Below are positions 1-17,737 of a DNA stretch of 25,760 nt, one piece after another (the first letter of the stretch is position 1; each line of letters starts with the position of its first letter). The DNA is taken from positions 1-25,760 of the forward strand of contig JBKHIT010000065.1 of assembly GCA_046538485.1 (NCBI GenBank), written 5' to 3'. A program made the translations under genes and the position numbers. The DNA is from Candidatus Brocadiia bacterium (GTDB lineage Bacteria > Planctomycetota > Brocadiia > SM23-32). The notes under the pieces were generated by a model. That model was not told the origin of the DNA and searched no databases. It saw nothing but the letters and a program-made list of their open reading frames with translations.

Positions 1-14
1 TGGTGCTGTCGGTA

Positions 15-260
15 AGCCCGCGGAGCGGGCGTGGCAGACGTAGCCCGGGGCGAAAAGAGGCCGTTGTTTGGCCGAACGAGCCCTGGGATAACGGAACGTA
101 AGAGAAAGAATGCGGATCGCCTCGCCGCAGGCGAGCGCCGCAGAAGCGGCGACGGACCTCGTCCGTGCGATCCGCTCCGCATTGTTAGCCGTCCTCTCCC
201 CCGGGCTCCCCCTGAATCGGGCTGGCCCGGGGCTACGTCTGCTCCGGCCCTTTGGGCCTC
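15..260. repeat. Large nested palindromic element (REP/MITE-like); left end may lie outside the window
   Basis: Perfect 13-bp inverted repeat GCAGACGTAGCCC (34-46) / GGGCTACGTCTGC (230-242). An inner stem GCGGATCGC (112-120) / GCGATCCGC (167-175) encloses three adjacent hairpins (121-135, 136-151, 152-166). Small terminal hairpins at about 16-30 and 246-258. No credible ORF. Confidence 0.65.
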
Positions 261-289
261 TTTTGAAACGGCAATTGATACGCTAAACA

Positions 290-1040
290 AGTACTTCTCC
301 CAGCCCCTCCCCGTTGTCGCGATGGGGTTGATTCCCCATATTTACCGGCGTACGGCTTTCCCGTACCGGGCGACCCGTCGAAGATTGCCCCTTGCGAGGA
401 GCGGCACAGGCTCCTGCTTCGCCTCTGGTGCGTGCGCCGCTGCATCCGTCAGGCCATCGAGCTGTTAGGAGATGTTTCTTAGCAATCCGTCAGGTTGTCC
501 CCATGCGGGCGGGCCAATTTTGGGCTTGAGGCGAGGGCCGGTTAGGCAATCGTTCTCGCTTCTCCGCATGGCCCCTGCCGTTTCACCGTTGGCTTGTCGG
601 CGGGACGACCTCCACGAGGAGGACGGAGCGGGATATTCACCGGTATGACTCGTTTCCATTGTCTCCAAGTGCTCACACGTATCACCCGCGCAGGTCCCCC
701 GCAGATATCCGCACGTTCTGCGGCGGGAGACGGAGAGGAAAGAGGGTCCGTCTCGGCGCTTCACCTGAGGGGCGGTGGATGGCGCACAGGGCAGGCCGAA
801 GTGCCAACCCCCGGAGCCTCACTGCCTGGCCTCTACGCTACGGTTCCTTCTTCCGGAGGAACCGGTGGATACCGCACTGGCAGCCGTACCCCCGCATGGA
901 ATCGCGGGGTTCGAGCAGCGAGTTCTGTACGGGCGCGGACCCGCACAGGTAGGTTTTGATCCGTTTATTTGCCTCCTTTCCGGTATCTCACCGTTTGACA
1001 AACGTAGACTGAGTAACGAGCCATGACGGCTCACGCGCCC
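290..1040 (-). ncRNA. ORF-less group II intron-like (IIA-like) structured RNA; 3' end not resolved
   Basis: Minus-strand motifs are collinear with IIA introns such as Ll.LtrB (compared from memory): GCGCG 5' end (1038-1034) plus hairpin, AGTC (1010-1007), GTGAGATA (991-984), GGGTACGGCTG (891-881), GAAACG...ATGCGGAGAA (584-560), TGCCTAA (548-542), ACGGA J2/3-like (449-445), GGCGAAG DIII-like (423-417), a tiny DIV with a GCAA tetraloop (395-392), a DV-like CGC-5bp-AC-bulge hairpin (374-345) and a DVI-like GGGGAGGGGCTGGGAGAAGTAC (312-291). G-U pairs favour the minus strand. Confidence 0.6.
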
Positions 1041-1396
1041 CTGCGGGGCTAAACGGGAGTTGGAACACCAGTATTTATTGCCGGCACAACTCTCTTACTG
1101 CGTTGCCCCCATCGGCGCAGGACCGATGGCGGGCCAAAGGTGAGTTGAAGGCACGTAGTGAGCTAATCGCCGCGCCACCGACACAGGGTCGGCGGAGACC
1201 AGAACTTTTTGCCGCCTATCCCTTTTTATCGCATCCCCGACTACATGGCACGCAAGCGGACTCCAGAGCTTTATTCGAAGATTCCACCCCTCGAAAGCTG
1301 CCGTCCTTACGCGCAATGACCCGGGCTGTTGTAACCCGCAGCCGGCCGTTGATGCCCGCGTCCTTAATTACCAATCTGGAAAAAGTTTTTCGTTAT

Positions 1397-1476
1397 GTGG
1401 CATTTTACCCCTTGACGGACTCCGTTTACCCCCTATAATGCAGGATGAGCCGGGAAGCGAAGGGGCAAATTTCCCC
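1397..1476. promoter_or_regulatory. Two putative operator palindromes flanking the sigma70 promoter
   Basis: GTGGCATTTTACCCC (1397-1411, abutting the -35) and GGGGCAAATTTCCCC (1462-1476) both resemble the perfect palindrome GGGGCATTTTGCCCC at 7086-7100. Confidence 0.5.
1412..1439 (+). promoter_or_regulatory. sigma70 promoter of the H2-sensor operon
   Basis: TTGACG (1412-1417), 16-bp spacer, perfect TATAAT (1434-1439), about 70 bp upstream of the ATG at 1511. Confidence 0.75.
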
Positions 1477-1510
1477 GGCCGGCGGTTATATTAAGAGCGT
1501 TGGAGCGCAT

Positions 1511-2509
1511 ATGATAAAATTACTGTGGCTGCAGGCCAGCTGCTGTGGAGGAGAGACCGTCTCGCTGCTGAATGCGGAGCAGCCGGATCTTCTCACCACG
1601 TTTGATCTTCTCGGGGTGGACCTCGTCTGGCACCCCTCTTTCAGCCGGACACAGGGCGACGCAGCGCGGGAATTGCTGAACAAGTGTGTCAACGGCGAGA
1701 AAAACCTTGATATTCTTGTTATCGAAGGTGCCGTGCCGACCGGTGAGGATGAACGCCCCAGGGGGCTGGGACCTGAGGGACCGGGTATTGCGTGGCAGAT
1801 CGAACGGCTGGCCGGAGTTGCCAAACATGTCATGGCTGCCGGGACGTGCGCGTGTTTCGGGGGAGTGATGTGCGCGGGTTCAGGTCGCACCTCGGCCACA
1901 GGGGTGCAGTTTCAGCGTCAGGACTTCGGCGGACTTCTTGAACCAGATTTTCGGTCGGGAGCGGGTCTGCCCGTGGTGAATGTCCCGGGCTGTCCGGCGC
2001 ATCCGGACTGGATCACAGGAACGCTCACTGAGCTGGCCCGGGACAGCCTTCAGGAGAACGATCTGGACCAGTATAATCGCCCGCGGATGTTCTATTCTAA
2101 ACTGGCCCATCACGGTTGTCCGCGCAACGAATACTATGAATTCAAAGCTTCGGCCGAGAAATACTCCCAGCAGGGATGTCTGTTCGAAAATTTGGGGTGC
2201 AAGGGGACGCAGTGCGATTCAGATTGCAACGAGCGTTTATGGCTGGCTCGCACGGGCAGCTGCACCCGGGGGGGGTTCCCCTGTCTTTCGTGCACGTCGC
2301 CGAAATGGCCGGAAGGATTCGTGCCGTTCTTTGAGACCGAGAAGATCGGCGATGTGCCGACCACCCTCCCGCTCGATGTGCCGAAGGCCTGGTATGTGGG
2401 GATCAGTGGCCTCGCTAAACTTGCCTGCCCGGAAAGATTGTCTGTTAATGCCGTGAGTTTCAAACCAGTGGAGTCGGACGATGGGGACGAACAAGAATAT
2501 AGTGTTTAG
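1511..2509 (+). CDS. hupU: Regulatory (H2-sensing) [NiFe] hydrogenase small subunit, HupU/HoxB-like
   Basis: ATG at 1511 after GGAG (1502-1505). No Tat leader. Motifs LLWLQ, VEG-like IEGAV, GTCACFGG, VPGCPAHP, HGCPRNEYYEFK, GCLFENLGCKG, SCTRGGFPCLSC, and the HupU/HoxB-type C-terminal tail (LPLDVPKAWY...PERL). Confidence 0.9.
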   Translation: MIKLLWLQASCCGGETVSLLNAEQPDLLTTFDLLGVDLVWHPSFSRTQGDAARELLNKCVNGEKNLDILVIEGAVPTGEDERPRGLGPEGPGIAWQIERLAGVAKHVMAAGTCACFGGVMCAGSGRTSATGVQFQRQDFGGLLEPDFRSGAGLPVVNVPGCPAHPDWITGTLTELARDSLQENDLDQYNRPRMFYSKLAHHGCPRNEYYEFKASAEKYSQQGCLFENLGCKGTQCDSDCNERLWLARTGSCTRGGFPCLSCTSPKWPEGFVPFFETEKIGDVPTTLPLDVPKAWYVGISGLAKLACPERLSVNAVSFKPVESDDGDEQEYSV

Positions 2510-3917
2510 TCCGTTCACCCGGGTGGAGGGAGACCTGCGGCTGGGTGTGGAAGTTGAGGACGGGACCGTGGATTCGGCCCGCGCGTCCGGAACACTTTTT
2601 CGGAATTTTGAGAACCTTTTACGTGGGCGCGATCCCATGGATGCGATCGTGGTTCTCTGCCGGATTTGTGGTCAGTGTGGGGCGGCCCATTCCCGGGCGT
2701 CGGCCGGTTCTCTCGCCGATGCGTTCGGCGTTGAGCCACCAAAGAACGGTTTTCTTGCGGCGACAGTCATACAGGCGGCGGAATTTATTCTGAGCCATAT
2801 GGCGCACTTCTATTTTTCCTTTGCGCCGGATCTCTGTGGTCTCCCGGAACAGGAGGACCTCGAGGAACGGTTTGAACCCGTCCGGGGAAGTTCCTTTCGC
2901 CAGGCCGTCAAAGTCCGACGGACCCTGCTCGGGCTGATGGGGCTGTTTGCCGGAAAATGGCCCAATACTCTCGCCATCCAACCCGGTGGCGTCACGCGTC
3001 CTCTGACGGAAGGAGAACTCATCCGCTCAAAAGGGATTCTCGCCGAGTTTCAACGCGGGGTTGAAGGTAGTTTGCTGCGCGGTCGACTCGATGATTGGCT
3101 CGCTAATACCTGCTTTGAAGATGTTGAACGATGGTTGGAAACGGACGATCATTCCGAAAGCGATCTCGGTCTGCTGATCCGGCGAGGAATGGACAATGGT
3201 TTGACGGAGATCGGCAAAGGCCCGGCCCGGTTTCTATCGACCGGTTGTCTCGAATTGGGCCGGGGCGAAAGCTGGCTCAGAGCGGGATACCGAGACGAAG
3301 ATATTCGAGATCTGGAGGCGACGGCGATCACCGAGGATGTGGCATTTTCGTGGTTTGATTCCGGTGGAAAACACCCCTCAGAGCAGGGCACAATTCCCGC
3401 TCCGGACAAAAAAAAGGCCTACAGCTGGGCCAAAGCTCCCAGATACAAAGGAAAATCGGTGGAAGTCGGACCGCTCGCACGGATGGTGATCGACGGCGAC
3501 CCTCTGGCCCTGGACTTGAACGAGAAGTTTGGGCCCTCCGTTTTGACGAGAAGCGTGATGCGAATCCATGAGATGTTACGGCTCATGAAAGCTATGGAAA
3601 GCTGGATTGAAGAAATCGATCCCGAACGACCGTTCTGCCGCAGCGCCGACGTCTCCGGGATGGGCGAGGGTTGTGCTTTGACGGGAGCCCCCAGGGGCGT
3701 GCTCGGGCACTGGCTGCGGGTCGAAAAAGGACGGATACGCAACTATCAGGTGGTCACACCGACCAGCTGGAATCTGTCGCCCAGGGACTCAAACGACCAC
3801 CCCGGTCCTCTGGAAGAAGCCCTTGTAGGCACCCCGGTGGAGGATCCCGATCAGGCCACAAACGTCGCGCTGGTGGTTCGGTCGTATGACCCCTGTCTCT
3901 ACTGCAGTGTTCACTGA
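2481..3917 (+). CDS. hupV: Regulatory [NiFe] hydrogenase large subunit, HupV/HoxC-like (group 2b-type)
   Basis: PFTRVEGDL N-terminus, L1 RICGQC, GKWPNTLAIQPGG, YSWAKAPR, APRGVLGHW, PTSWN. L2 DPCLYCSVH ends at the stop with no cleavable extension, as in sensory hydrogenases. Confidence 0.92.
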   Translation: MGTNKNIVFSPFTRVEGDLRLGVEVEDGTVDSARASGTLFRNFENLLRGRDPMDAIVVLCRICGQCGAAHSRASAGSLADAFGVEPPKNGFLAATVIQAAEFILSHMAHFYFSFAPDLCGLPEQEDLEERFEPVRGSSFRQAVKVRRTLLGLMGLFAGKWPNTLAIQPGGVTRPLTEGELIRSKGILAEFQRGVEGSLLRGRLDDWLANTCFEDVERWLETDDHSESDLGLLIRRGMDNGLTEIGKGPARFLSTGCLELGRGESWLRAGYRDEDIRDLEATAITEDVAFSWFDSGGKHPSEQGTIPAPDKKKAYSWAKAPRYKGKSVEVGPLARMVIDGDPLALDLNEKFGPSVLTRSVMRIHEMLRLMKAMESWIEEIDPERPFCRSADVSGMGEGCALTGAPRGVLGHWLRVEKGRIRNYQVVTPTSWNLSPRDSNDHPGPLEEALVGTPVEDPDQATNVALVVRSYDPCLYCSVH

Positions 3918-3929
3918 GCGAGGATTTCA

Positions 3930-5216
3930 ATGCCGAGCAAGGTATCTCAATGGGAAGCGCAGGAAAGTGTCTGGGTGCAGATTATCCAGCAGATGGAGGA
4001 ATTGTACGCGCAGCTGGCGGATTCTCAAGCGGAAATTGAACGACACGCCGAAGAACTCAGAGATGCCAAAAAACTTGTCGATAATATCATCCGTAGCATG
4101 AGCGATGTGCTGATCGCAGTCGATTCCTCCGGGACCATCACTCTGGTGAACGAGGCCGTCGACCGGTTGTTCGGTTTTTCCGAGGAAGAGTTGGAAGGAG
4201 CAACTCTGGCAAAACTTCTTCCGGGGGAAGCGCAAAAGCAGAAATGGAGCTGGCCCCGGCTCAGCCGCAGGATCCGAAAAAGCGGTTCGTTGCGCGAGGT
4301 GGAAACGCGCTGGCAGGCCCGGCGCGGAAACCTCATACCCGTGGGGGTCACGGTGTCTGCCCTGAGGGACGAGTGGGAGGAAGTTGCCGGGGCGGTGCTT
4401 GTGGTTCGGGATCTGAGGGAGCGCAAACGCCGGATAGCTGAGGCCCAGGCCGCCACCGCCGCCGCCCGTGAAAAAGCCAGGGAACTTGAAGAAGCAAACG
4501 AAAACCTGAAACGACTTCAGGACGAACTCGTCCAGGCTGCCAAAATGAGTTCTCTTGGCCGGCTGGCGGCCGGGGTGGCTCATGAACTCAATAATCCCCT
4601 GGGCGGCATTATGCTCTACAGCGACCTGCTGCTGGAAGATATTCCAAAAGGGGATACCCGGCGCCCCACGGTCGAGAAGATCGCCGACCAGACCAGTCGT
4701 TGCCGCAGTATTGTGCAGGACCTGCTGGAATTCTCTCGACCTGCCCAGGCTGCCTCCCGACCCGTCGATATCAATTCCTTGCTTGAGGAAGCCGTGAATA
4801 TCCTCGAAGGACAACAGGTGTTCCACAATGTCTCAAGCCACTGGAAACTGGCCGAGGAAATCCCCTCGCTGACCGGGGACCCCGACCGGCTCCGGCAGAC
4901 GTTCCTTAACATAGTCCTGAATGCCGTCGAAGCGATGGAAGGAAAGGGAGAACTGTATCTCCGGACAAGCGTCAAGGATGGCAAAGTGACGATCGAAATC
5001 CAGGATTCAGGCTGTGGTCTCACCGAGGAGCAACAGGAACATCTTTTTGAGCCGTTCTACACGACAAAAGAGACGGGAACGGGGCTCGGATTACCAGTCA
5101 CCTACGGGATAATCGAACGACATGGCGGGGACATCGAAGTCGAAAGTGAAAAAGGTCAGGGTGCAACTTTTCGAATCAGCCTCCCCCTGACCGAGGAGGG
5201 CGAAAGGGATGAATGA
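3930..5216 (+). CDS. hupT: PAS-domain histidine kinase, HupT/HoxJ-like
   Basis: N-terminal VWVQIIQQMEELYAQL...SMSDVL typical of HupT/HoxJ; PAS domain; H-box LAAGVAHELNNP; N-box NIVLNA; DSGCG, FEPFYTTK, GTGLGL. Directly follows hupUV. Confidence 0.85.
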   Translation: MPSKVSQWEAQESVWVQIIQQMEELYAQLADSQAEIERHAEELRDAKKLVDNIIRSMSDVLIAVDSSGTITLVNEAVDRLFGFSEEELEGATLAKLLPGEAQKQKWSWPRLSRRIRKSGSLREVETRWQARRGNLIPVGVTVSALRDEWEEVAGAVLVVRDLRERKRRIAEAQAATAAAREKARELEEANENLKRLQDELVQAAKMSSLGRLAAGVAHELNNPLGGIMLYSDLLLEDIPKGDTRRPTVEKIADQTSRCRSIVQDLLEFSRPAQAASRPVDINSLLEEAVNILEGQQVFHNVSSHWKLAEEIPSLTGDPDRLRQTFLNIVLNAVEAMEGKGELYLRTSVKDGKVTIEIQDSGCGLTEEQQEHLFEPFYTTKETGTGLGLPVTYGIIERHGGDIEVESEKGQGATFRISLPLTEEGERDE

Positions 5217-6573
5217 AGGCGGCAGAGTGCTCGTTGTCGATGACGAAGAAGTTATCCGGGATAGCTGCCGGGAAGTGCTCGAGCGCGAGGGGCTCAGTGT
5301 GGCAGAAGCCGAAAATGCACCCGCAGCTCTCAACGTTCTCGACCAGGAGAGATGGGACGTGGTGCTTCTCGACCTGAAAATGCCCGGGGTCAGCGGTCTG
5401 GAAGCCCTTAAAAAAATCAAAAATCGTGATAGCGAACCCGTAGTAATTATCATTACCGGCTACCCGAGCGTCCAGACCGCCGTGGAAGCTATGAAATGGG
5501 GAGCGATGGATTATCTGACCAAACCGTTTGATTGCGAAAAGCTTACGGCGACGGTCGGTCGGGCACTGGCACGCCGAGACCTGGAGTTGAGCAGCTATCC
5601 CGGAGAAAGAGGCGCGGAAGATCAATCCCCGAGCGGCTCCATGCTTGTGGGGGAAACACCCCAGATCAAAGAGATCCGCTCCCTGATCAAACAGGTGGCG
5701 GAGACAGAAAGTACCATTCTGATTATGGGGGAGAGCGGGACCGGGAAAGAAGTGGTCGCGCGAATGCTCCACCAGCAAAGCGCCCGGAGCGATGAACCTT
5801 TCGTGGTCGTTGACTGTACAACGCTGGTAGACTCACTGGTGGAAAATGAGCTGTTCGGCCACGTCAAAGGGTCGTTCACCGGAGCCTCGGAAACGAGACG
5901 TGGGCGATTCGAGATGGCCGAGGGCGGCACGCTGTTTCTGGACGAAGTGGGCTCAATCGACAAAGGGTTGCAGTCGAAATTGCTGCGCGCAATTGAACGA
6001 GGAGAAATCGTGCGGGTCGGGTCGAACGAAGCTATCCACGTCGACGTCCGTGTCATCGCGGCCTCCAATACCGATCTTGCACGCGCCGTGGAGGATGGTG
6101 AGTTCCGGGAAGATCTCTACTATCGCCTGAGCGTCGTTCCGATTGTGCTCCCGCCGTTGCGGCAAAGAAAAGAAGATATCCCGCTGCTGGCTCGCCATTT
6201 TCTTGAACTTCATGCCGAAAACCGCAAACGAGATGTCCGTCGGATTAGCGATGACGCCATGGATGTTCTTAAAGCACACGATTGGCCCGGGAACGTGCGC
6301 GAACTCTCCAATGCCATCGAACGGGCCGTGGTGCTTGCGGAAGGGGAAGAGATCGTCCCCCAGCTGCTTCTCCATTACGGGTTTACCTACAGTCCCGACC
6401 GCGTTCGGAGTGACGCGGATGTGCCGACACTTGAAGAACTGGAAGAGCGTCACATCCGCCGCGTTCTCCGCCGCACCGGCGGCAACAAAACACGCGCGGC
6501 CGAACTTCTCGGAATCGACCGTAAGACGATCTACCGGAAACTTCAGCAGTTTGAAGAAGAGGAATCGGGCTGA
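5209..6573 (+). CDS. NtrC-family sigma54-dependent response regulator (REC-AAA+-HTH)
   Basis: REC (VVDDE, LDLKMP, KPF); Walker A GESGTGKE; GSFTGA; FLDEVG; FREDLYYRL; WPGNVREL; Fis-type HTH GGNKTRAAELLGIDRKTIYRKL. Overlaps the kinase stop. Confidence 0.95.
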   Translation: MNEGGRVLVVDDEEVIRDSCREVLEREGLSVAEAENAPAALNVLDQERWDVVLLDLKMPGVSGLEALKKIKNRDSEPVVIIITGYPSVQTAVEAMKWGAMDYLTKPFDCEKLTATVGRALARRDLELSSYPGERGAEDQSPSGSMLVGETPQIKEIRSLIKQVAETESTILIMGESGTGKEVVARMLHQQSARSDEPFVVVDCTTLVDSLVENELFGHVKGSFTGASETRRGRFEMAEGGTLFLDEVGSIDKGLQSKLLRAIERGEIVRVGSNEAIHVDVRVIAASNTDLARAVEDGEFREDLYYRLSVVPIVLPPLRQRKEDIPLLARHFLELHAENRKRDVRRISDDAMDVLKAHDWPGNVRELSNAIERAVVLAEGEEIVPQLLLHYGFTYSPDRVRSDADVPTLEELEERHIRRVLRRTGGNKTRAAELLGIDRKTIYRKLQQFEEEESG

Positions 6574-6719
6574 GGGGGCAGACGGGAAATACGGCGTCGG
6601 AGATTTTGACGCCCGAGGCGGACAGACTCGGTCGCAAGGGCAAACCGCTGAGCGGTTGCGTTTGTCGAGTACTTCGATTTCAAACCGCGGCGCGAGGAAT
6701 ACATGAGGGAGGCGTTGAA

Positions 6720-6890
6720 ATGACAGAGGATATCGATGTCGAGCGGATCCAGCAGTTGATCAGTTCCATGCGGGAGTCCGTCAGCATGCTATGCGAACTG
6801 GCGGAGCTGGAGAAAGGGGAATTTAATGGGGATCGGCACAAGCAGAGCAGCGCAGCCTCAGAGCTTCTTAACCGCTGGAAACTGCGATGA
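6720..6890 (+). CDS. Putative small helical protein (56 aa), unknown function
   Basis: GGAGG at 6708-6712 before ATG 6720; amphipathic helical-looking sequence. No recognised domain. Confidence 0.35.
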   Translation: MTEDIDVERIQQLISSMRESVSMLCELAELEKGEFNGDRHKQSSAASELLNRWKLR

Positions 6891-7063
6891 TACCAGAGTG
6901 TGATCTTTCCGGGCTGAAGCTCCCCTCTGGTCCTGCGCACGATGGAGGGCTGCGCCCGCCCGGTGCGGCGTGGAGTGGCGAACCGTTTCCCCGCCGACAG
7001 GTGGTCGACGGAGAAGCCAAACGACGGATCACAGTTCCATCCGCAGTTTATGGGCGTAAAAGC

Positions 7064-7101
7064 GGGGCAGCGCGCCTCGGGGGCCGGGGCATTTTGCCCC
7101 G
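7064..7101. promoter_or_regulatory. Putative tandem enhancer (UAS) sites for a sigma54 activator
   Basis: Perfect palindrome CGGGGCA-TTT-TGCCCCG (7085-7101) and a degenerate copy GGGGCAGCGCGCCTC (7064-7078) offset by 22 bp, about 260 bp upstream of a -24/-12 promoter. Confidence 0.55.
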
Positions 7102-7359
7102 ATCTGGGGTCGTGGTCGCCGGAGACGTTGTCGGCTTCCGGAACCCGTGGCCCGGCTGAACTCCAGGCAGCTATCTCTTCGAGAGATGCCTGTGCGGCGC
7201 GATAGCGAAAGCCTGGCTTTATGATGTAAGTAATGTTCGAACAAGGGCTTAGCAGCCACCACCACGCTGCGGAATCCGGCAAAAACCGAAAAGCCTTCCC
7301 GCCCGTCGGGCTGCCGAGCCTCTCCATAACTGCCTTTTCGATTCTATTTTGGAATCCCC

Positions 7360-7375
7360 TGGCGTGGATTTTGCA
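7360..7375 (+). promoter_or_regulatory. sigma54 (-24/-12) promoter
   Basis: TGGCGTGGATTTTGCA: GG (7361-7362)-N10-GC (7373-7374), close to the TGGCAC-N5-TTGCW consensus, 70 bp upstream of the ATG at 7445 and downstream of a sigma54 activator gene. Confidence 0.75.
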
Positions 7376-7444
7376 ATACCTGTTTGCCAGCTTGACAGGT
7401 ATTGGATTCTTTCGAGCAATCAGGTGATCCGCTGAGGGGAAAGA

Positions 7445-7840
7445 ATGAGCGAAAATCGAAGGAAAATACTCGTCGTGGACGACGATGAGGACTATCAGGC
7501 CGCGGTAAGAAAGATTCTGGAGGACGCGGGCTACGAGGTCGTTTCTGCTTTCAATAAACAGGAGGGGCTGAAATCGCTGCACACCGATGATCCCGACCTT
7601 CTCATCCTGGACATCATGATGGATAAAAGCACGGACGGGTTCTTTTTCCTGTATGAGATGGGTGAAGAGGAAGGAATGGAGAGGCCCCCCGTGCTGTCGG
7701 TCAGCGTAATAGAGGAAGAAACAGGAATGGATTTCTCTCCGACTTCCGATGAGGATTATTTTCCCGCCGATGATTTTCTCAGCAAACCCGTGGATCCCGA
7801 AGAACTCATCTCCCGAGTCGAAAAGTTGCTGTCCCGGTGA
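7445..7840 (+). CDS. Single-domain response regulator (REC)
   Basis: ILVVDDDED, LILDIMM phosphoacceptor, FLSKPV; GAGGGG RBS. Confidence 0.92.
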   Translation: MSENRRKILVVDDDEDYQAAVRKILEDAGYEVVSAFNKQEGLKSLHTDDPDLLILDIMMDKSTDGFFFLYEMGEEEGMERPPVLSVSVIEEETGMDFSPTSDEDYFPADDFLSKPVDPEELISRVEKLLSR

Positions 7841-7880
7841 AATTGTGATCGGATTGCGCAGGAACAACGAGTGAACAAAT

Positions 7881-9065
7881 ATGCTGACGGTTCTTGAATC
7901 AATGGGCGATATAAACCAGTCAATCGAAACCCCGGTACAAACGGCGATCCCGCGCGACGAAGACAAGAAGCCGGGTCGTAAGGTACTTGTGGTGGATGAC
8001 GATCAGGCGATGCTGGATTCCTGCTCGGAGGTTCTCGAGCGAGAGGGATTCGATGTTATTGGATGTGGCAGCGGCGAAGAAGCTCTCAAGACCATGCGCG
8101 CCATCGGGCCAGATATTTTGATCATAGACCTTAAAATGCCGGGAATGTCGGGCGAAGAGTTTCTCAAGAAAGCCAAAGAGGTTGACTCCCAGGTGGTGGC
8201 CGTGGTGGTGACCGGCTACCCGGAACTCAGTTCCGCGGTGGAGGTTATGAAAGCGGGAGCGTCGGATTTTCTGCCGAAACCTTTTGGAGCGGAGGAGCTG
8301 CGTATCGTGACCCAACGCGCCATGGAGAAACGCGAACTGGCGCTTCAGGTCGCTGCAGGGCGGAGAGAAAAACAACGCATGCACGATAACTTCGCGGCGA
8401 TGATCTCCCATCAGCTCAAATCCCCCGCGGCCTGTGTGAAAGAATGCTTGGACGTGGTCAGACATTCCTTCAGCGATCGTATGCCGGAAAAGTGCACGGA
8501 GCTTCTGGACCGCGCCGCCGCGCGATCGCAGCTCCTGCTGGACCTCATGGACGACTGGCTCTCGCTGGCTCGTGTGGAATCCGGACAGCTCAAGGAATCG
8601 GATGAATGTGTCGACCTGGCCGAGGTTGTGGAAGAAGCTGTCAGCGCGGCTGAAGACGGCCACGAGGGGCCCGCAGCAGATGTTGCTATCGAATCCCGGG
8701 CAGAAGAGACTTCTGTCCGTGGCGATGCCGACGCGCTTCGGGAGATGGTCTTCAATCTTGTCGATAATGCCATGCGGTATACACCCGAAGAGGGGCGTGT
8801 GGAGGTGAGAACCGAAGCCGCCGGCGATGAAATTATTGTGGAGGTCGAGGACAACGGGCCCGGTATCCCGCGCGAAGAAGTCGAAGTGATTTTCGAGCCA
8901 TTTCACCGCGGCAAAAGAGGCCGTGGAAAACAGGGCACAGGGCTCGGTCTGGCGATTGTGAAACAGATTGCGCTCGCCCATGGCGGGCGAGTGGAAGTTG
9001 AAAGTGAGAACGGACGCGGGACCACCTTTGCCGTTCATTTACCCGCTGAGGGGAGTGGAGCATGA
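7881..9065 (+). CDS. Hybrid REC-histidine kinase without a sensor domain (start could be 7902)
   Basis: REC (VVDDD, IDLKMP, KPF); H-box ISHQLKSP; NLVDNAMRY; DNGPGI; GTGLGLAIV. Confidence 0.92.
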   Translation: MLTVLESMGDINQSIETPVQTAIPRDEDKKPGRKVLVVDDDQAMLDSCSEVLEREGFDVIGCGSGEEALKTMRAIGPDILIIDLKMPGMSGEEFLKKAKEVDSQVVAVVVTGYPELSSAVEVMKAGASDFLPKPFGAEELRIVTQRAMEKRELALQVAAGRREKQRMHDNFAAMISHQLKSPAACVKECLDVVRHSFSDRMPEKCTELLDRAAARSQLLLDLMDDWLSLARVESGQLKESDECVDLAEVVEEAVSAAEDGHEGPAADVAIESRAEETSVRGDADALREMVFNLVDNAMRYTPEEGRVEVRTEAAGDEIIVEVEDNGPGIPREEVEVIFEPFHRGKRGRGKQGTGLGLAIVKQIALAHGGRVEVESENGRGTTFAVHLPAEGSGA

Positions 9066-10132
9066 GCAATGGAGCAACTGACGCCCGTCTCGTTTCCCGG
9101 TCAGAACTGGGCACTTTGCTGACCGAAGCCCTGTCCGGGCGGCGCGTTTTTGGCTCAAGCTGTGAAAACGACGAAGTCCACCTGCGTCAAATAACCCCGG
9201 ATAGAGTGGATATCCCGCCTCACAGGAGTATCGAACCTCCCAAACCGCTCTTTTTCCGAACGCGGGAGAATCTGGGCAGTTATCTGGGAGACGACGGAAC
9301 GCCTGAATCGGAGCCGCGCGCCCTCGTCGGCGCCACGGCCTGCGACCTGGCTGCTTTAAAGATGCTGGACTGGGTCTTTCTGGAAGGCGACGTCGTCGAT
9401 CCCTATTACGAAACTCTGCGGGATAGCACGCTCGTGGTCTCGGTCGATTGCACCGAGCCCAAGGACGAGTGTTTCTGCACCTGGTTGGGGCGGAAACCGT
9501 ATCCCGAGGGAGCCTTTGACATCAATCTGTCTCCCATTTCAGATGGTTATGTGGTGCAGATCGGCAGCGAGCGTGGCCGTGAGGCGATGGGAGAAATTCT
9601 GGAAAAGTGTCCTGCCGCTTCCGCCGACCACCTCCAGCAGCGAGATCAGATGCGCGGGCAAGCCGAACAACACGTCGACGCGACGGTATCGGAGCTTGGG
9701 CTGCACATGACCGATGATTTCCAGGAACGGGTCCGAGAGAGCATTGATCTTGCCCTGTGGGAAGAGCTGGCCGAAAAATGCGTCGAGTGCGCGGCCTGCA
9801 ACTTCATCTGCCCGACCTGCCACTGTTTCTTGCTGGCAGATGTGGAAGCAAAGGAAGATTTTAAACGATTCAAGAACTGGGACGCCTGCCTCTACGAAGC
9901 TTTTGCCCTCGAAGCCAGTGGGGTGAACCCACGTCCCCGCCGGGCCGCCCGACTCCACGGACGTCTGGAAAAGAAATTCGATTTTCTGAAAACCAATACC
10001 GGCGACTGGGGGTGCACCGGTTGCGGGCGTTGCATCGAAGCCTGCGCCGGGGAAATTGATATGCGCGAAACCATACAGAAGATCACGGCCCCGGAAGGTC
10101 AAAAGAAAAGAACGGAGGCCGCGAATGCCTAG
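9062..10132 (+). CDS. 4Fe-4S dicluster protein, AsrA / sulfhydrogenase beta (HydB)-like
   Basis: ACDL, CFC, CVECAACNFICPTCHCF, WDAC, CTGCGRCIEAC. ATGA overlap with the upstream kinase. Confidence 0.88.
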   Translation: MSNGATDARLVSRSELGTLLTEALSGRRVFGSSCENDEVHLRQITPDRVDIPPHRSIEPPKPLFFRTRENLGSYLGDDGTPESEPRALVGATACDLAALKMLDWVFLEGDVVDPYYETLRDSTLVVSVDCTEPKDECFCTWLGRKPYPEGAFDINLSPISDGYVVQIGSERGREAMGEILEKCPAASADHLQQRDQMRGQAEQHVDATVSELGLHMTDDFQERVRESIDLALWEELAEKCVECAACNFICPTCHCFLLADVEAKEDFKRFKNWDACLYEAFALEASGVNPRPRRAARLHGRLEKKFDFLKTNTGDWGCTGCGRCIEACAGEIDMRETIQKITAPEGQKKRTEAANA

Positions 10133-10937
10133 CATTTACCATTGCGTGAAGACAGAACTGGCTGATGTGACGACGGAAACGGACAATATCAAGACGTTCC
10201 TGCTCCGGCCCGAGGTGCCCGTTTCTTTCAACGCCGGCCAGTTCGTGGAAGTTACCCTGCCCGGGCTGGGCGAGGCCCCCTTCACACCTTCCTCTTCACC
10301 CGCCGAAGATCAGGAACTCGCCGTCACGGTCATGAAAGCCGGGAAGGTGACATCGGCCATGCACGAGTTGGAACCCGGCGCCGAACTCGGCGTCAGAGGA
10401 CCTTATGGCAACATTTACCCGCTGGATGATTACGAAGGCCGCAACATTCTGATACTGGGAGGCGGGGTTGGACTGGCTCCGCTCAGGTCACTCCTCTACG
10501 CGCTGCTCGCCGATCGCGACCGGTTTGAGCGAATTGTCCTCTGTTACGGCGCCCGCACCCCGGACGATCTGGTCTACAAAGATCAGCTCCCTGAGTGGAG
10601 CGCGCGGGAGGATCTGGAAGTGCACCTGACCGTCGATAAGGCCGACGAAGATTGGGATGGTAAGGAAGGCGTGGTCACCGAAACGCTTGAGGACGTAACA
10701 ATCGATACAAGTGCAACAGTCGGCGTCGTCTGCGGCCCCCCGATCATGATGCGATTCGGCACGATAGCTCTCGAGAATAAGGGGTTTACGCCCGAAAACA
10801 TCTACCTGTCGATGGAACGGAATATGAGCTGCGGGCTCGGGAAATGCGGTCATTGCCGGATCGGCAATTACTACGTCTGCAAGGACGGCCCCGTTTTCAC
10901 GTATCAGCAACTCGAAGGAACACGCCACCTGTGGTGA
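10125..10937 (+). CDS. FAD/NAD(P)-binding [2Fe-2S] oxidoreductase, AsrB / sulfhydrogenase gamma (HydG)-like
   Basis: GQFVEV, GEAPFT, RGPYGN, GGGVGLAP, CGPPIMM, CGLGKCGHC...VCKDGPVF. ATG 10125 after GGAGG. Confidence 0.92.
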   Translation: MPSIYHCVKTELADVTTETDNIKTFLLRPEVPVSFNAGQFVEVTLPGLGEAPFTPSSSPAEDQELAVTVMKAGKVTSAMHELEPGAELGVRGPYGNIYPLDDYEGRNILILGGGVGLAPLRSLLYALLADRDRFERIVLCYGARTPDDLVYKDQLPEWSAREDLEVHLTVDKADEDWDGKEGVVTETLEDVTIDTSATVGVVCGPPIMMRFGTIALENKGFTPENIYLSMERNMSCGLGKCGHCRIGNYYVCKDGPVFTYQQLEGTRHLW

Positions 10938-10953
10938 GGTGAAAAACAGCGAA

Positions 10954-11445
10954 ATGGAGCAGAGACTTCAGATCAACCTCGATATCTGTCGCGAATGCGA
11001 GGATTGCACGGCGACATGCGGCTATCCCTACCACCATCCCAACAACGGTGTAGCTCGTCTTCGCGAACTGGCCGCCCAGGAACTCACCTGCCGCCAGTGT
11101 GAGGTGCAATCCTGCGTTCTGGCATGTCCCAATGATGCGCTGGAAAAGGACGAGGACGGGATATTGCGACGCTACAACATGCGCTGCACGGGATGTCTAT
11201 CGTGCAGCGTTGCATGTCCGTTCGGGACGCTGATTCCCGCGGCTCTTGAGTTTCGCGACAGTTTTTGCGACGCCTGCGCTGATCGGGGTGAGGGAGAACT
11301 TCCCGAATGCGCCAGAACGTGCCCGGAAGATGCTATCGTTATCGGCTCTGTGGATGAAGACGAAGAAAACGTGCACCTGCTGGGAGAGAACCTGGCGGTG
11401 CGTTCGCTCGTATGGCAGAAAAAGGAACCGGCGGAGAGCAAATGA
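10954..11445 (+). CDS. Multi-[4Fe-4S] electron-transfer protein (HycB/CooF/DmsB-like); alternative GTG start 10939
   Basis: Cys motifs CREC...C, CRQC...CVLACP, CTGCLSCSVACP, CDAC...CARTCP. Confidence 0.85.
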   Translation: MEQRLQINLDICRECEDCTATCGYPYHHPNNGVARLRELAAQELTCRQCEVQSCVLACPNDALEKDEDGILRRYNMRCTGCLSCSVACPFGTLIPAALEFRDSFCDACADRGEGELPECARTCPEDAIVIGSVDEDEENVHLLGENLAVRSLVWQKKEPAESK

Positions 11446-12407
11446 GCAGCGAGATCCCCATATACCTGTTTCGCTTCATCGTATTTCCCGGCCTGTTTTT
11501 CACCGCGGGGCTCGGGCTCCTGGTGAGCTGGGTCGACCGGAAGGTCACCGCCCGCATTCAGTGGCGGGTGGGGCCACCGTTGCTCCAGCCGTTCTACGAC
11601 CTGGTGAAACTGATGGGCAAAGAGACCATCGTCCCGGCAAATGGTTCACACCTGGCGTTTCTCGGTGCGCCACTGATCGGGCTGGCCGGCGTGACGCTCG
11701 CGGCGACACTCCTCGGCACGGCTGTTATCTATCCTCAGGCAGGGTTTACGGGCGATCTTGTTGTTTTGCTCTACCTGCTGGTTCTGCCGGCCCTGGCGGT
11801 GATCCTCGGGGGCGTGGCTTCGAACAGCCCCCTGGCCTCCGTGGGAGCCAGCCGGGAAATGAAACTGGTGCTCAGCTATGAACTGCCTCTGATCGCGATT
11901 ATTACCGTTCCCTTGATTCAGATGGCGCAGGCGGAGCCGGCGGTGGAAGGCGGGCTTCTGCGTCTCAGCACACTGCTGGGATACCAGACGTCGAACGGGG
12001 CGTTCGCCTGGAGCGTCTCGGGCGCAGTGGCCCTGGTGGCCGCCATCTTCTGTATGCAGGCAAAACTGGCCGCCGTGCCGTTCGATCAGGGGGAAGCCGA
12101 GACCGAGATTATGTCCGGGGCGTTCATCGAATATTCCGGCGCCCCGCTCGCGATATACAAACTGACGAAAGCGATGATGCTGGTGGTGATGCCGATGTTT
12201 CTGGTGGTCGTGTTGTGGGGCGGATTCGGTTCCAGCACCCTCTCGGTTCTGTTGGGGATCGGGAAATATCTGGTGCTGGTGGTGCTGTTCACGCTTCTTC
12301 GCAACACGAATCCCAGAGTTCGTATCGAACATGCGATGAAGTTTTTCTGGGGACCGGTCACCGGGCTGGCGTTCGTGGCAATTGTGCTTGCTATAGCGGG
12401 AGTCTGA
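11442..12407 (+). CDS. Complex I subunit 1 family membrane anchor (NuoH/MbhM/HycD-like)
   Basis: DRKVTARIQWRVGPPLLQPFYDLVKL, PFDQGEAETEI, EYSG, NPRVRIE; about 8 TM segments; ATGA overlap. Confidence 0.93.
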   Translation: MSSEIPIYLFRFIVFPGLFFTAGLGLLVSWVDRKVTARIQWRVGPPLLQPFYDLVKLMGKETIVPANGSHLAFLGAPLIGLAGVTLAATLLGTAVIYPQAGFTGDLVVLLYLLVLPALAVILGGVASNSPLASVGASREMKLVLSYELPLIAIITVPLIQMAQAEPAVEGGLLRLSTLLGYQTSNGAFAWSVSGAVALVAAIFCMQAKLAAVPFDQGEAETEIMSGAFIEYSGAPLAIYKLTKAMMLVVMPMFLVVVLWGGFGSSTLSVLLGIGKYLVLVVLFTLLRNTNPRVRIEHAMKFFWGPVTGLAFVAIVLAIAGV

Positions 12408-12409
12408 AA

Positions 12410-12856
12410 ATGGCGCTCGAAGGCCTGAAGATGAAAGCGCTCTCAAAATCGCCCTGGGTGTTCCATGTCAGCGCGGGATCCTGTAACAACTGCGACATCG
12501 AGATCCTGGACTGTCTTTGCCCGCGGTTCGACATCGAACGGTTCGGCGCTCTACTGGTGGGAAGCGTCCGGCACGCCGATGCTCTGCTTGTCACCGGCGG
12601 GATGAACAGAAAATCGGCAAAACGTGTGAAAAACCTCTATGAACAGGCCTCGAAACCCTGTCTGGTCATCGCAATCGGCACGTGTGCGTGTGGGCAGGGC
12701 ATATTCCGGGATAGCTACGCGTTGACGACCCCGCTGGATGAGGTGCTCCCGGACGCTGTCACGGCTTACGTGCCCGGATGCCCGCCAAAGCCGGAGGCCA
12801 TCATTCTGGGCGTGGTGAAGGCACTCGAGCAATTGAAGGGAAAAGAAAATGAATGA
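12410..12856 (+). CDS. Group 4 [NiFe] hydrogenase small subunit (NuoB/MbhJ-like)
   Basis: SPWVFH, GSCNNCDIE, RHADALLVTG, IGTCA, VPGCPPKPE. ATG 12410 directly follows the upstream stop. Confidence 0.93.
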   Translation: MALEGLKMKALSKSPWVFHVSAGSCNNCDIEILDCLCPRFDIERFGALLVGSVRHADALLVTGGMNRKSAKRVKNLYEQASKPCLVIAIGTCACGQGIFRDSYALTTPLDEVLPDAVTAYVPGCPPKPEAIILGVVKALEQLKGKENE

Positions 12857-13310
12857 AGGTTTCGAACAGATCATTCGCCAGAACCTCGAGGATATTGCTC
12901 GGGAAATCGAGGTCCACGCTCCGGAGCGGATCTACGTGGAAGTGGGGCCTGATGATCTTCTGGATGCTGCCGGCCGGCTTTTCCAGAAACTGGGGGCCCG
13001 CTACGCCATCGCCTCGGGCACGCATATCGAGAACGGCTTTGAAGTTCTCCACCATTTCGCGTTCGACGGGGAGGGAGGCCTGGTCAGTCTGCGGGTGCGG
13101 ACCGAAGAGGATCCCCCCGAGTTCGACTCCCTCGCCCCGATGATCAAAGGAGCCCGTTTCATCGAGCGGGAGATCCATGATCTGCTCGGGATCCGGTTCC
13201 GGGGTCATCCAAATCTCACGCGGCTTATCCTGCCGGAAGACTGGCCGGACGATGTCTATCCGCTCCGACAGGGCAAGCCCTGGGAAGGAAAGGTGAAAAA
13301 ACAGATATGA
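12849..13310 (+). CDS. NuoC/MbhK-like subunit
   Basis: EREIHDLLGIRFRGHPNLTRLILPEDWP...YPLR. Confidence 0.92.
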   Translation: MNEGFEQIIRQNLEDIAREIEVHAPERIYVEVGPDDLLDAAGRLFQKLGARYAIASGTHIENGFEVLHHFAFDGEGGLVSLRVRTEEDPPEFDSLAPMIKGARFIEREIHDLLGIRFRGHPNLTRLILPEDWPDDVYPLRQGKPWEGKVKKQI

Positions 13311-14494
13311 CCACATCCACCATACCAATAGGGCCGTTTCACCCGCTCCAGGAGGAACCCGAGCTGTTCCGACTGCACGTGGATGGGGAGACGGTCGTTG
13401 ATGTGGACGTTGAGATCGGATGGAACCATCGCGGCATCGAAAAGGTCTCCGAGGGCAAGACTTTTGATCAGGTGCCTTTTCTGGTGGAAAGAATCTGCGG
13501 GATCTGTTCGACTTCCCACCCGATCGCCTATGTGCAGGCGGTGGAGGATGCCGGGCACCTCGAGGTGCCCGAACGGGCGCTCTACATCCGCAGCATCATC
13601 GCGGAACTGGAGCGTCTGCACAGCCATCTGCTATGGGTGGGTTTGGCCGGCCATTTCCTCGGTTACAACACGGTTTTCATGTGGGCCTGGAAATACCGTG
13701 AGCCCGTTCTCGATATCTGCGAAGAACTGACGGGCAACCGGAACAATTACGCCATGATCAAAGTCGGCGGAGTCCGACGGGATCTGGACGAGTCGAAGTT
13801 TCCCGGAGTTCTGGGTCGTCTTGACGAACTCGAGAAGAAAGTCAAGATGCTCGCCGGGGCAGTTACCGATGATCCTGTCCTGCACGCCCGTCTCAAAGGA
13901 GTGGGCGTTCTCACCGAAGAGGCGGCGAGAGATTACGGGGCGCTCGGGCCCACCGTACGCGGCAGTGGCATTCCCTGGGACGTGCGAGCCGACGAACCAT
14001 ACGCAGCCTATGATCTCGTCGATTGGGATATCATAACGGCCCCTTCCTGCGATGTTTACGGGCGTGCTGTCGTGCGGGTGCTGGAGTGCTTCGAGTCGAT
14101 CGAGATCATCCGCCAGTGCTTCGAAAACATGCCGGAGGGCGATATTGATGCGAATGTGACCGAGATACCGCCCGGGGAAGGCATCGGTCACGCCGAAGCT
14201 CCCCGGGGTGAGACGTTCCATTACGTGCGCTCCGACGGGACCAATCAGCCCGTCCGCCACAAAGCCCGGGCGCCGACATACATGAATCTGCCGACCTGCT
14301 ACGAGACCGTGGTGGGCGAGTCGGTGACGGATGCCACAATTATCCTCGCATCGGTCGATCCGTGTTATAGTTGCACCGAGCGGATGGGTGTTGTCTACGA
14401 TGCTTCGAGCGGCGAGCGACTTCTTGATGGCAAAGAACTCGTGAGACTTTCGCAAGAGAAAACCGAGGCCCTACGAAGGGAGATGGGGAGATGA
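13307..14494 (+). CDS. Group 4 membrane-bound [NiFe] hydrogenase large subunit (MbhL-like, NuoD family)
   Basis: PIGPFHP, HRGIEK, intact L1 ERICGICS and L2 DPCYSCTER (four Ni-ligating Cys), EAPRGE, 36-aa C-terminal extension. Confidence 0.93.
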   Translation: MTTSTIPIGPFHPLQEEPELFRLHVDGETVVDVDVEIGWNHRGIEKVSEGKTFDQVPFLVERICGICSTSHPIAYVQAVEDAGHLEVPERALYIRSIIAELERLHSHLLWVGLAGHFLGYNTVFMWAWKYREPVLDICEELTGNRNNYAMIKVGGVRRDLDESKFPGVLGRLDELEKKVKMLAGAVTDDPVLHARLKGVGVLTEEAARDYGALGPTVRGSGIPWDVRADEPYAAYDLVDWDIITAPSCDVYGRAVVRVLECFESIEIIRQCFENMPEGDIDANVTEIPPGEGIGHAEAPRGETFHYVRSDGTNQPVRHKARAPTYMNLPTCYETVVGESVTDATIILASVDPCYSCTERMGVVYDASSGERLLDGKELVRLSQEKTEALRREMGR

Positions 14495-16329: not shown

Positions 16330-16341
16330 GAGACCGGACAG

Positions 16342-16905
16342 ATGGTAAATCTGCTGATTCTGCTGCTGGTTTTCATGATCATCGCGGCGGTGATCGCGCT
16401 GTGGACCGAAGATTTGCTCTCGAGTGTCATTGCCGTCGGCGCCGTGGGTTTTGGCAGCAGTGTGGCATTTCTATTGCTCAGTGCGCCCGACCTGGCGATC
16501 ACCCAGATTGTGGTGGAAGTGCTGACGCTGGTGCTGTTGATCCGCGCGACGGTAGGCAGAGATGTCAAAACCACCTCGGGTTCCCGCGATGTTTTCGGAC
16601 TGGCGGTCTCGGGGGCTCTCGTGTTGATACTGCTCGTGTTCGCGGTTCAGACAGCCCAGTCTCTGCCCGAATTCGGCCAACGACCTCCGGTAGCGAGAGA
16701 AGCAGCCCCGGCCGCGCAGTATCTGACCGATGGATTGGATAAAACCGGATCGGCAAACATCGTAACCGCCGTCTTACTGGACTATCGGGCCTATGACACT
16801 CTGGGGGAAGCCACGGTGCTTTTTGCGGCGGTCGTCGGCGCAATGACGTTGCTGCGCAGGAGAAGCCGGAAAGAAGAAACTCCCGCTGAGGAGGAACAAA
16901 CATGA
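16342..16905 (+). CDS. MbhD/MbhE-like fusion (DUF4040 plus MrpA C-terminal/MnhB-related domain)
   Basis: APDLAITQIVVE and NIVTAVLLDYRAYDTLGEATVL. Confidence 0.88.
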   Translation: MVNLLILLLVFMIIAAVIALWTEDLLSSVIAVGAVGFGSSVAFLLLSAPDLAITQIVVEVLTLVLLIRATVGRDVKTTSGSRDVFGLAVSGALVLILLVFAVQTAQSLPEFGQRPPVAREAAPAAQYLTDGLDKTGSANIVTAVLLDYRAYDTLGEATVLFAAVVGAMTLLRRRSRKEETPAEEEQT

Positions 16906-17375: not shown

Positions 17376-17378
17376 AAC

Positions 17379-17729: not shown

Positions 17730-17737
17730 GGGAGTAA

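Follow-up and report, generated by a model that had tools for sequence, protein, structure and literature searches.

An ORF-less group II intron copy beside hydrogenase genes in a Candidatus Brocadiia genome leads to an intron lineage with a branched domain V

INTRODUCTION

No part of a group II intron is more conserved or more central to catalysis than domain V, the counterpart of the ISL and triad of U6. Among group II ribozymes, those of class IIC are about 400 to 450 nt long. The TeI3 family of Thermosynechococcus, reportedly described by Mohr et al. in 2010, is said to consist of group II introns without an ORF that rely on the IEP of a related intron in trans. Passages of Zimmerly and Semper 2015 (PMC4424553) describe bacterial ORF-less introns as rare and as nearly always residing in genomes with related IEP-encoding introns, and present class C introns as having an En-less RT and targeting hairpins or terminators. 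In excerpts of PMC1865049 and PMC2691827, Bacillus introns of the B.c.I4 type carry a 3′ extension of 53 to 56 nt. In the spliceosome, helix Ib joins the AGC triad of U6 to U2, the ISL comes next after that triad, and helix II forms between the 3′ end of U6 and the 5′ end of U2 (passages of PMC6294511). The group II census of Miura 2022 used an RF00029 cut-off of >24 bits, as given in an excerpt of that paper (PMC8919778).

Here, we describe a locus in a window of 25,760 nucleotides, the whole stretch of DNA that was analyzed, which forms the start of contig C10 in the 143-contig genome assembly of a Candidatus Brocadiia bacterium. We conclude, with a probability of roughly 0.85, that the minus strand at window positions 295 to 1034 carries a non-autonomous group II intron retroelement copy without an ORF. 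The domain V of its lineage departs from the canonical form.

RESULTS

The element is about 740 nt long and non-coding. Its limits, 295 and 1034, lie close to those of the non-coding element of about 750 nt that an earlier note on this DNA had placed at 290 to 1040. It sits in a non-coding span (1 to 1440) that is followed on the plus strand by a pair of genes for the small and large subunits of a NiFe hydrogenase; the neighboring cluster, about 400 nt off and divergent from the element, encodes a sensor-type NiFe hydrogenase, a histidine kinase, and a σ54 activator. No host gene was found around the element, in keeping with the earlier note, and no gene was found upstream of it on the minus strand. 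Promoter-like sites in 1 to 1600 were found on the plus strand only, the better one (TTGACG-16-TATAAT, 1412 to 1439) facing the hydrogenase genes; on the minus strand of the same span, none was found. The window copy contains no RT, the RT/maturase ORF being present in domain IV of full-length members only.

The Rfam search that the earlier note had suggested was run and gave no group II match, although the element is a group II intron. The whole window had no match at the gathering threshold, and at an E value of ≤10 no group II family (RF00029 and group-II-D1D4-1 to -7) appeared in 1 to 1600; the matches obtained there at this threshold, a miRNA and Acido-Lenti-1, were due to chance. Nor did folding energy set the region apart. 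For 290 to 1040, the minus strand gave z = −0.68, with 6 of 20 dinucleotide shuffles folding as well, and the plus strand gave z = −1.25, with 2 of 20 shuffles doing so; the dense hairpins claimed in the earlier note are thus no better than chance by this measure.

Homologues were recovered through sequence words. The exact 20-mer of 332 to 351 occurs in at least 120 metagenome contigs, and nearly all of those listed are 80 to 95% identical to window positions 300 to 400. The 3′-terminal 100 nt of the element are found again in no fewer than 117 metagenome contigs, immediately behind RT/maturase ORFs: in the orientation of the window minus strand, this 3′ module lies directly 3′ of an ORF of 390 to 460 aa, and all three ORFs tested contained RVT_1 and GIIM. 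An upstream flank of 1,000 nt or more was available at 47 metagenome loci. In 38 of them, an RT ORF of 350 aa or longer lies immediately 5′ of the module; the other nine comprise two ORF-less loci (L037 and the mini-derivative L048) and seven with broken or unclear ORFs. A further 70 metagenome loci, too short to judge, were left out of this count. A covariance model (CM) search of 95 loci, 86 of the 20-mer contigs included, returned 92 matches. L050, L099, and L104 had no CM match and were discarded as chance matches to the 20-mer. ORF-less relatives of similar size came from other samples (L037 and L089). When genome contigs were scanned with a 20-mer from the 5′ end, five matched, and only L028 was similar beyond the word itself.

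The loss of the ORF is visible in the alignment of the window with a full-length intron of the same phylum (L171:978-3053, from genome G098), which covers window positions 1049 to 756, 602 to 527, 485 to 471, and 405 to 304. The L171 ORF occupies positions 1723 to 2979, and window 485 to 471 corresponds to L171 1655 to 1669 and window 405 to 304 to L171 2920 to 3020; the ORF segment of about 1,250 nt is therefore replaced by 65 nt in the window (406 to 470). This agrees with the short, RT-free domain IV that the earlier note had described. Because the homologues carry an RT ORF and the window alignment exchanges it for these 65 nt, we identify the element, on the minus strand, as a group II intron that has no ORF, in agreement with the earlier note. 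The remnant of domain IV together with J4/5 spans 375 to 485, as placed by alignment to L171 and to a sibling intron on contig C120 of the same genome; it includes the conserved pre-ORF motif (471 to 485, from the alignment to L171) and a GCAA-capped hairpin (384 to 401) whose counterpart in the siblings is the region of the ORF tail. Domains I to III probably occupy 486 to 1034, all on the minus strand, and were assigned from consensus pairing and from identity to L171 (72.5% over 295 nt), L174 (71%), and the C120 intron. When the first 300 nt of 10 members were aligned, pairing survived a change of both partners at 25 of the 41 predicted pairs. L171 has about 745 nt ahead of its ORF, and the ribozyme without ORF is about 765 nt long.

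A sibling RT was compared with RTs of solved structure. It matched the IIC enzymes 6ar1 and 7uim at 3e-69 and 4e-66, LtrA at 1.5e-45, and 6me0 at 1.9e-38, and with about 410 aa it has no En domain. The IIA-like label of the earlier note, which came from a comparison with Ll.LtrB, is therefore unsupported, and we rejected a IIA assignment on both grounds. In a quick maximum-likelihood tree of 43 RTs, the 40 from introns with an insert in domain V formed one clade (SH-aLRT 98), with three canonical-domain-V introns as the only outgroups and a small sampling. The nearest canonical-domain-V outgroup in this small set was C99. The intron of G126, considered as a canonical-domain-V sister lineage, was rejected as such, the quick tree placing it far off, with C44. 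The lineage could appear under an "unclassified" IEP type in the supplements of Toro 2013 or Miura 2022.

Domain V of the window copy lies at 316 to 374 on the minus strand, a placement based on structure counts, covariation, and minimum free energy (MFE). Read 5′ to 3′, the domain in the lineage consists of G-U-CGC, of which CGC is the triad (372 to 370 in the window), CCGGU, an upper helix of 3 to 5 bp closed by a 5-nt loop, then the AC bulge and GCCGG; there follow UAAAU, a hairpin AUGGGG-N6-CCCCAU, and Y, after which GCG-A-C closes the domain. Taken without the middle piece, domain V would be canonical, with five pairs above the triad, a bulge of 2 nt, and an upper helix that ends in a loop. 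In the window, this piece is an insertion of 24 nt in the 3′ strand (321 to 344), composed of the linker UAAAU, the hairpin AUGGGG-AAUCAA-CCCCAU, and a C; across the lineage, it measures 24 to 37 nt, with about 24 nt being typical. In this lineage, domain V is a three-way junction: its 3′ strand carries a hairpin at the point where the partner strand of the triad would otherwise adjoin the remaining helix. The middle pair of the triad is G-C, not G·U. The loop of the upper helix in the window is GAAAG, so that both loop types named in the earlier note, GCAA and GAAA, do occur in the element. The upper helix is variable, being 70% paired after CM realignment and, by eye, paired in both length variants.

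To evaluate this structure, 81 distinct 3′ modules (79 from metagenomes plus those of C120 and G007) were aligned. In the hand-drawn structure, 91.4% of the cells were paired, compared to 44 to 52% with the partners slid, and the covariation of 0.152, versus 0.084, was not reached by any of 500 shuffles. A lineage CM (R1) was then built, and sequences were added with the CM rather than the 20-mer, which brought in G098, G064, and G028. The extended set of 92 matches was 93.2% paired, compared to 48 to 58% when slid, with a covariation of 0.185 versus 0.089 and again none of 500 shuffles reaching it. Homologues with compensatory changes, to which the earlier note had looked, were thus found. 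Domain VI forms a long helix in the 81 aligned sequences, with one bulged A at a distance of 7 nt from the end of homology (ACCCNCU|); the triplicate copies in G028 have the bulged A at the same position relative to the end of homology, and homology in the alignment ends after ...UUACCCNCU. The pair above the branch A is G·U in 88 of 90 sequences, and three other domain VI pairs are G·U in 10, 9, and 28 of 90. Since these conserved G·U pairs exist only on the minus strand, the RNA is read from that strand, which the earlier note had favored.

The insert might be thought to lie outside domain V, which would then be the CCGG-capped hairpin only, with a fortuitous pairing of GUCGC and GCGAC. Such a reading could draw on the second closing pair, which is U-A in 79 of 90 sequences and C·A, uncompensated, in 11; three pairs never vary and are hence uninformative, and much of the region is fixed by the exact 20-mer used for collecting, columns inside which are invariant by ascertainment. 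However, it would leave the CGC triad unpaired and a lower helix of 5 bp, and the outer closing pair does covary (of 90 sequences, 82 have G-C, 7 have A-U, and 1 has another combination). In C120, G098/G064, and G028, where the insert has another sequence at the same position, both partners are also replaced in the two outer pairs of the insert hairpin (columns 72-114, AU 79, GC 8, and GU 3; columns 73-112, UA 79, AU 7, GC 3, and CG 1). G028, a complete genome from another family, keeps GUCGC...GCGAC around an unrelated hairpin, GGAUACUUUG...CAAAGUAUC, and compensates three of the four CCGG pairs. Moreover, when the same CM aligns the G126 intron, whose domain V is canonical, exactly the insert is missing, and MFE folding returns the three-way junction in all four divergent members examined (z of −3.3 to −5.3). 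We therefore see little chance that the closing pairs are fortuitous and place the insertion within domain V. No description of a domain V insertion in published group II introns was found in the literature searched, and an earlier one may exist; as far as could be checked, the branched domain V is an undescribed variant of the group II core.

The branching also accounts for the failure of Rfam. Three other introns of the same genome, used as controls, scored 50.4, 33.6, and 30.7 bits with RF00029, and the canonical domain V from G126 reached 51.9 bits. In contrast, the C120 intron gave no match, nor did L171, L174, L175, or L037, and the best score within the lineage was 21.7 bits (L089; gathering threshold, 40). 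Rfam misses the lineage because of the hairpin inserted in domain V, and an RF00029-based census with a cut-off of >24 bits would miss the clade. For the same reason, taking the lack of covariance-model hits as a refutation, as the earlier note proposed, would wrongly kill the idea of an intron. That note made no mention of the genomic repetition, the interruption at 294/295 by another repeat, or the non-canonical domain V.

The element is repeated in its own genome. In a blastn search of window 1 to 1500, the region split into four repeat parts: 1 to 295, with about 14 to 30 other genomic copies covering any part; 295 to 325, matching the terminal 30 nt (last or first) of contigs C26, C48, and C96; 986 to 1049, matching the first 55 to 63 nt of C33, C70, and C141; and 471 to 723, matching the end of C120. 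Since contigs stop just inside both ends of the element, we conclude that a multicopy element was collapsed by the assembler; the limits obtained in this way, 295 and about 1036 to 1049, agree with those in the earlier note. Contig ends of the genome hold at least six intact sibling 3′ ends and three further 5′ ends, and the same element stands at other, unrelated flanks. The sibling 3′ ends in C26, C48, C96, C62, C111, and C141 run ...GGGAGAA-UCCCAGCCCUUUACCCGCU|UCUG. C120 carries a full-length sibling with an open RT of 409 aa (C120:7302-8528; 66% identical to a metagenome RT) and a domain V/VI scoring 91.8 bits with the lineage CM, and this RT is a candidate helper in trans for the ORF-less copies. 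The identity between the window and C120 is mosaic, with 96% over 197 nt in 527 to 723 and about 70% in 307 to 401. The domain V/VI of the window subfamily differs from that of C120 by about 30%. A multicopy ORF-less family and a related RT-encoding intron in one genome support one option of the earlier note, a non-autonomous intron that would be mobilized in trans. Beyond the own genome, a DNA search of 41 relatives and 31 family genomes found the element only in G007, at contig ends only; among the 30 other family genomes, one has any match, at contig ends and not at this locus.

Insertion sites were compared at 18 distinct 5′ junctions, which remained after 2 of 20 matches to the 5′-end motif were dropped as unrelated chance matches. 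All 18 have GC directly before GUGAG, and in 13 a G/C hairpin with a stem of 4 bp or more ends 0 to 2 nt before the junction; 4 others directly follow the 3′ end of another copy plus GC, and 1 has neither. The window copy bears this insertion-site signature of the lineage on its minus strand, with a 5′ exon at 1035 to 1049 (hairpin GCCCC-GCA-GGGGC, then GC) followed by the 5′ splice-site motif GUGAG at 1034 to 1030. Most members start with GUGAG at the 5′ end and G028 starts with GUGCC, near the GUGYG consensus without matching it exactly, and the boundary is set by the end of homology. The loci with the order [DV-DVI]-GC-[GUGAG...] were considered as circularly permuted introns, a reading that was rejected because tandem insertions at overlapping GGGGC|GC| sites fit better; such tandem copies would be explained if ...GGGGC|GC| sites offer two overlapping targets.

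The boundaries were confirmed independently in G028, which has three copies that agree at 1,966 of 2,013 columns (~98%), each with an intact ORF of 433 aa, while their flanks diverge at GGC|GUGCC and after ACCAGCU|. These near-identical copies also point to recent movement of the lineage. In the own genome, all six intact 3′ exons start with UCUG followed by a hairpin, and three of the six are the left arm of a MITE-like repeat, colinear with uninterrupted copies of that repeat from UCUG onward. This colinearity places the 3′ splice site after ACCCGCU.

The same MITE-like dispersed repeat also abuts the window copy, occupying 1 to 294 outside the intron. It has terminal inverted repeats, GCGTTTAGCG...CGCTAAACGC, ends in GTAC (294), and shares its termini with complete units in C3, C26, C6, and C114; in the assembly, its right terminus meets the intron at 294/295, within the loop of domain VI, and its left part is cut by the contig start. 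Acido-Lenti-1 was rejected as the identity of this repeat, with no match at an E value of ≤0.01 in eight loci with MITE copies. Of domain VI, only the 5′ strand and loop are left (295 to 314, minus strand), as indicated by comparison with sibling ends and by the CM score, which is 65.8 bits compared to 92 to 121 bits for intact copies. Missing from the window are the last 23 nt, where siblings have the 3′ strand of domain VI with its bulged branch A, and the 3′ splice site; these 23 nt may lie beyond the contig start or have been deleted, and if the MITE simply inserted into the domain VI loop, the copy is interrupted rather than truncated. Because of the MITE in the domain VI loop, the absent branch strand and 3′ splice site, and the lack of a minus-strand promoter or gene, the window copy is most likely an inactive relic, consistent with the decaying intron that the earlier note had listed among its options.

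Three other accounts of the locus were weighed against this one. The copy could still be a working non-autonomous intron, with the MITE harmless in the domain VI loop and the 23 nt beyond the contig start: the contig begins inside the MITE, the MITE ends exactly at its own terminus with the intron resuming in the loop, as expected of a simple insertion, and domain V, the 5′ GUGAG, and domains I to III look intact, with 72% identity to a full-length relative and pairing kept. Nevertheless, such an intron would have to tolerate about 300 nt of structured sequence placed within domain VI, beside the branch site, it has no promoter-like site in 1 to 1600 or upstream gene on its strand, and no contig joining a left MITE end to UCCCAGCCC... 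was found (C62 starts there and is uninformative). We consider continued function of this copy very unlikely. The domesticated ribozyme or large structured ncRNA that the earlier note entertained, here one serving the neighboring hydrogenase regulon, would fit the divergent position about 400 nt upstream of the hydrogenase/kinase/activator cluster and the strong, covarying structure. It is at odds with the unrelated flanks of the other copies in the genome, with the RT-bearing siblings, with the single family genome among 30 that has pieces of the element, at contig ends and away from this locus, and with the loss of half of domain VI in the window. Flanks that vary between copies and a locus that is unconserved in relatives leave this account unsupported, and we regard it as extremely improbable.

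An assembly artifact, in which the ORF-less architecture or the mosaic arose from a chimeric path through intron paralogues, is unlikely. The mosaic identity to C120 and the contig breaks 30 and 55 to 63 nt inside the element would be in line with it, and so would the Logan contigs. For the latter, 14 listed sequencing runs, all of DNA, were kept as contigs. In all four runs with matches from 295, the contigs extend to the left with an intact intron 3′ end, not the MITE; those of the four runs differ from the window at 12 of 215 positions in 295 to 510 and at 8 of 331 in 527 to 857, and none of the Logan contigs listed bridges 262 to 295. On account of the mosaic and these differences, the interior of the MAG contig may blend intron paralogues. 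Yet an independent Logan contig of 821 nt, present in three runs, matches 295 to 510, continues at that end into the 23 nt of an unbroken 3′ end, and meets the window again at 922; being of about ORF-less size, it is too short for an RT ORF. Its depth in run X1 was 445, compared to 31 for the unique flank, a value that sums organisms and is not a copy number. ORF-less relatives exist in other samples (L037 and L089), and the microhomology where MITE and intron join (TTCTCC) is shorter than a k-mer mis-join would need. The ORF-less form is real.

DISCUSSION

Taken alone, the window copy is an ordinary relic, as an ORF-less, decaying group II intron would be anywhere; its significance lies in the lineage that it exposes. 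By analogy with established group II biology, on which the steps of excision, reverse splicing, and copying are modeled, the intron RNA would be excised with maturase help and would reverse-splice into DNA just after a G/C-rich hairpin ending in GC, and the En-less RT would copy the inserted RNA from a host-provided primer. ORF-less copies would borrow the RT/maturase of a sibling in trans, that of C120 being the candidate. The target rule suggested by the junctions would be the hairpin plus GC.

Somewhat tentatively, at a little under even odds, we propose that in a large clade of group II introns, common in the environment and continuing to move, domain V, held to be an invariant 34 nt, has become a three-way junction of U2/U6 topology through a hairpin inserted exactly between the triad helix and the bulged upper stem. 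If this is true, a hairpin resembling a break point is tolerated and retained at the spot where U6 and U2 would have had to part in an ancestral domain V, domain V-based surveys have consistently overlooked the clade along with its ORF-less derivatives, and the clade would offer a ready experimental model for fragmenting the group II core into U6-like and U2-like pieces. A hairpin kept beside the triad in at least 89 sequences from several genera would surprise specialists and provide a natural test of what the core tolerates. The parallel with U2/U6 would make the fragmentation of the group II core into snRNAs a question for the bench.

Set against the spliceosomal core as presented in passages of PMC6294511, the lineage would share the order of strands: triad, ISL or upper domain V, third helix, triad partner (GCGAC), and branch-site helix or domain VI. 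Unlike U2/U6, it is a single RNA with a loop-capped third helix, and the likeness is one of topology, implying neither common descent nor a shared three-dimensional structure. With B.c.I4-type introns, as far as the excerpts of PMC1865049 and PMC2691827 describe them, the lineage has in common an extra structured element at the otherwise fixed domain V-VI end; however, theirs is added after domain VI, whereas the addition here is inside domain V, beside the catalytic triad.

Several features recall class IIC. The RT lacks an endonuclease domain and its best solved relatives are IIC RTs, the triad is CGC (compare C358-G359 of the IIC triad in a passage of PMC6294511), and insertion just after a stem-loop at 13 of 18 junctions resembles the terminator targeting of IIC introns described in passages of PMC4424553. 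In contrast to IIC introns, the ribozyme without ORF is about 765 nt long, the target hairpins are followed by GC and not by a U tract, and domain V carries an insertion, with no RF00029 or D1D4 match. Because of the ribozyme length, and despite the stem-loop targeting, we did not adopt a IIC assignment.

The closest comparison is with the ORF-less introns of bacteria. Known members have a canonical domain V and were found through searches with it, whereas the branched domain V of this lineage is invisible to RF00029, and the window copy is, in addition, broken by a MITE. In other respects, the element matches the ORF-less introns described in passages of PMC4424553: the domain IV ORF is lost, the ribozyme is kept, several copies are present, and an RT-encoding relative resides in the same genome.

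Repeats flanking the intron

In the window, the intron abuts a MITE-like repeat at its 3' end and a second dispersed repeat family on its 5' side. The MITE-like repeat (1-294) has a unit of ~300 nt bounded by the terminal inverted repeats GCGTTTAGCG...CGCTAAACGC, and any part of it is covered by ~14-30 further copies in the same genome, many of them located at contig ends. A long inverted repeat lies in its interior. Because the left arm of this repeat constitutes the 3' exon in three of six intron copies with intact 3' ends in this genome, the MITE-like repeat seems to be a favoured target of the intron. On the other side, the hairpin preceding the intron is part of the second repeat family (1037-1260), which has ~3-10 copies with 73-94% identity, on contigs C13, C57, C131, C141 and C112 among others. 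C13 holds an "empty" relative, in which the homology reaches the last base of the hairpin.

The Acido-Lenti-1 RNA motif (RF01687) scored above gathering at L171:3100-3145 (58.7 bits), ~45 nt downstream of the 3' end of the full-length intron of genome G098, and at locus L094:1847-1893 (41.4 bits). We also obtained a weak match at window positions 36-87 (15.2 bits); since none of eight loci with MITE copies contained a match at E ≤ 0.01, it was rejected as noise.

Genes of the window

The hydrogenase gene region occupies 1445-6573 and 9062-21052, and a near-consensus promoter-like site is found at 1412-1439 on the plus strand. The genes for a small and large subunit pair of a sensor-type NiFe hydrogenase come first; next are those for a PAS histidine kinase and a sigma-54 response regulator, and then a gene set for a membrane-bound, Mbh/Mrp-like hydrogenase/antiporter of group-4 type. 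On the minus strand, opposite to the surrounding genes, a 428-aa ORF (6680-7966) matched no Pfam family at E ≤ 1e-5 and may be spurious, in G+C-rich DNA. By its domains (Eco57I-type methylase, N6_Mtase and TaqI_C), the 1,259-aa ORF at 21541-25320 resembles a restriction-modification enzyme of type IIG.

Variant and rearranged members of the lineage

At L048:1392-1579 (plus strand), domains V-VI are directly joined to the first ~80 nt of the intron (GUGAGCC...), ~190 nt in total; this mini-derivative looks like a "solo-ends" copy that arose by internal deletion. Head-to-tail tandem introns occur in four different contigs (L128, L133, L138 and L141), where the 3' end of one intron is separated from the GUGAG of the next by a spacer of exactly GC. 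In a rearranged copy from G098 (L169, C109:61150-64100, minus strand), a stretch of ~50 nt from the 5' end is fused to RT fragments and to a segment of the pre-ORF region in inverted orientation, yet domain V-VI is intact (108 bits). In one member (L039:1129-1262), the loop capping the upper helix of domain V contains ~25 additional nt, besides the domain V insertion of the lineage.

L029, L047 and similar loci represent a short-loop domain V variant. Here, the reading frame of the RT continues across the 5' strand of domain V, including the catalytic triad (...GUC GCC CGG UGA), and the proteins end in ...VGVAR, so that in this part of the lineage the coding sequence overlaps the catalytic core of the RNA.
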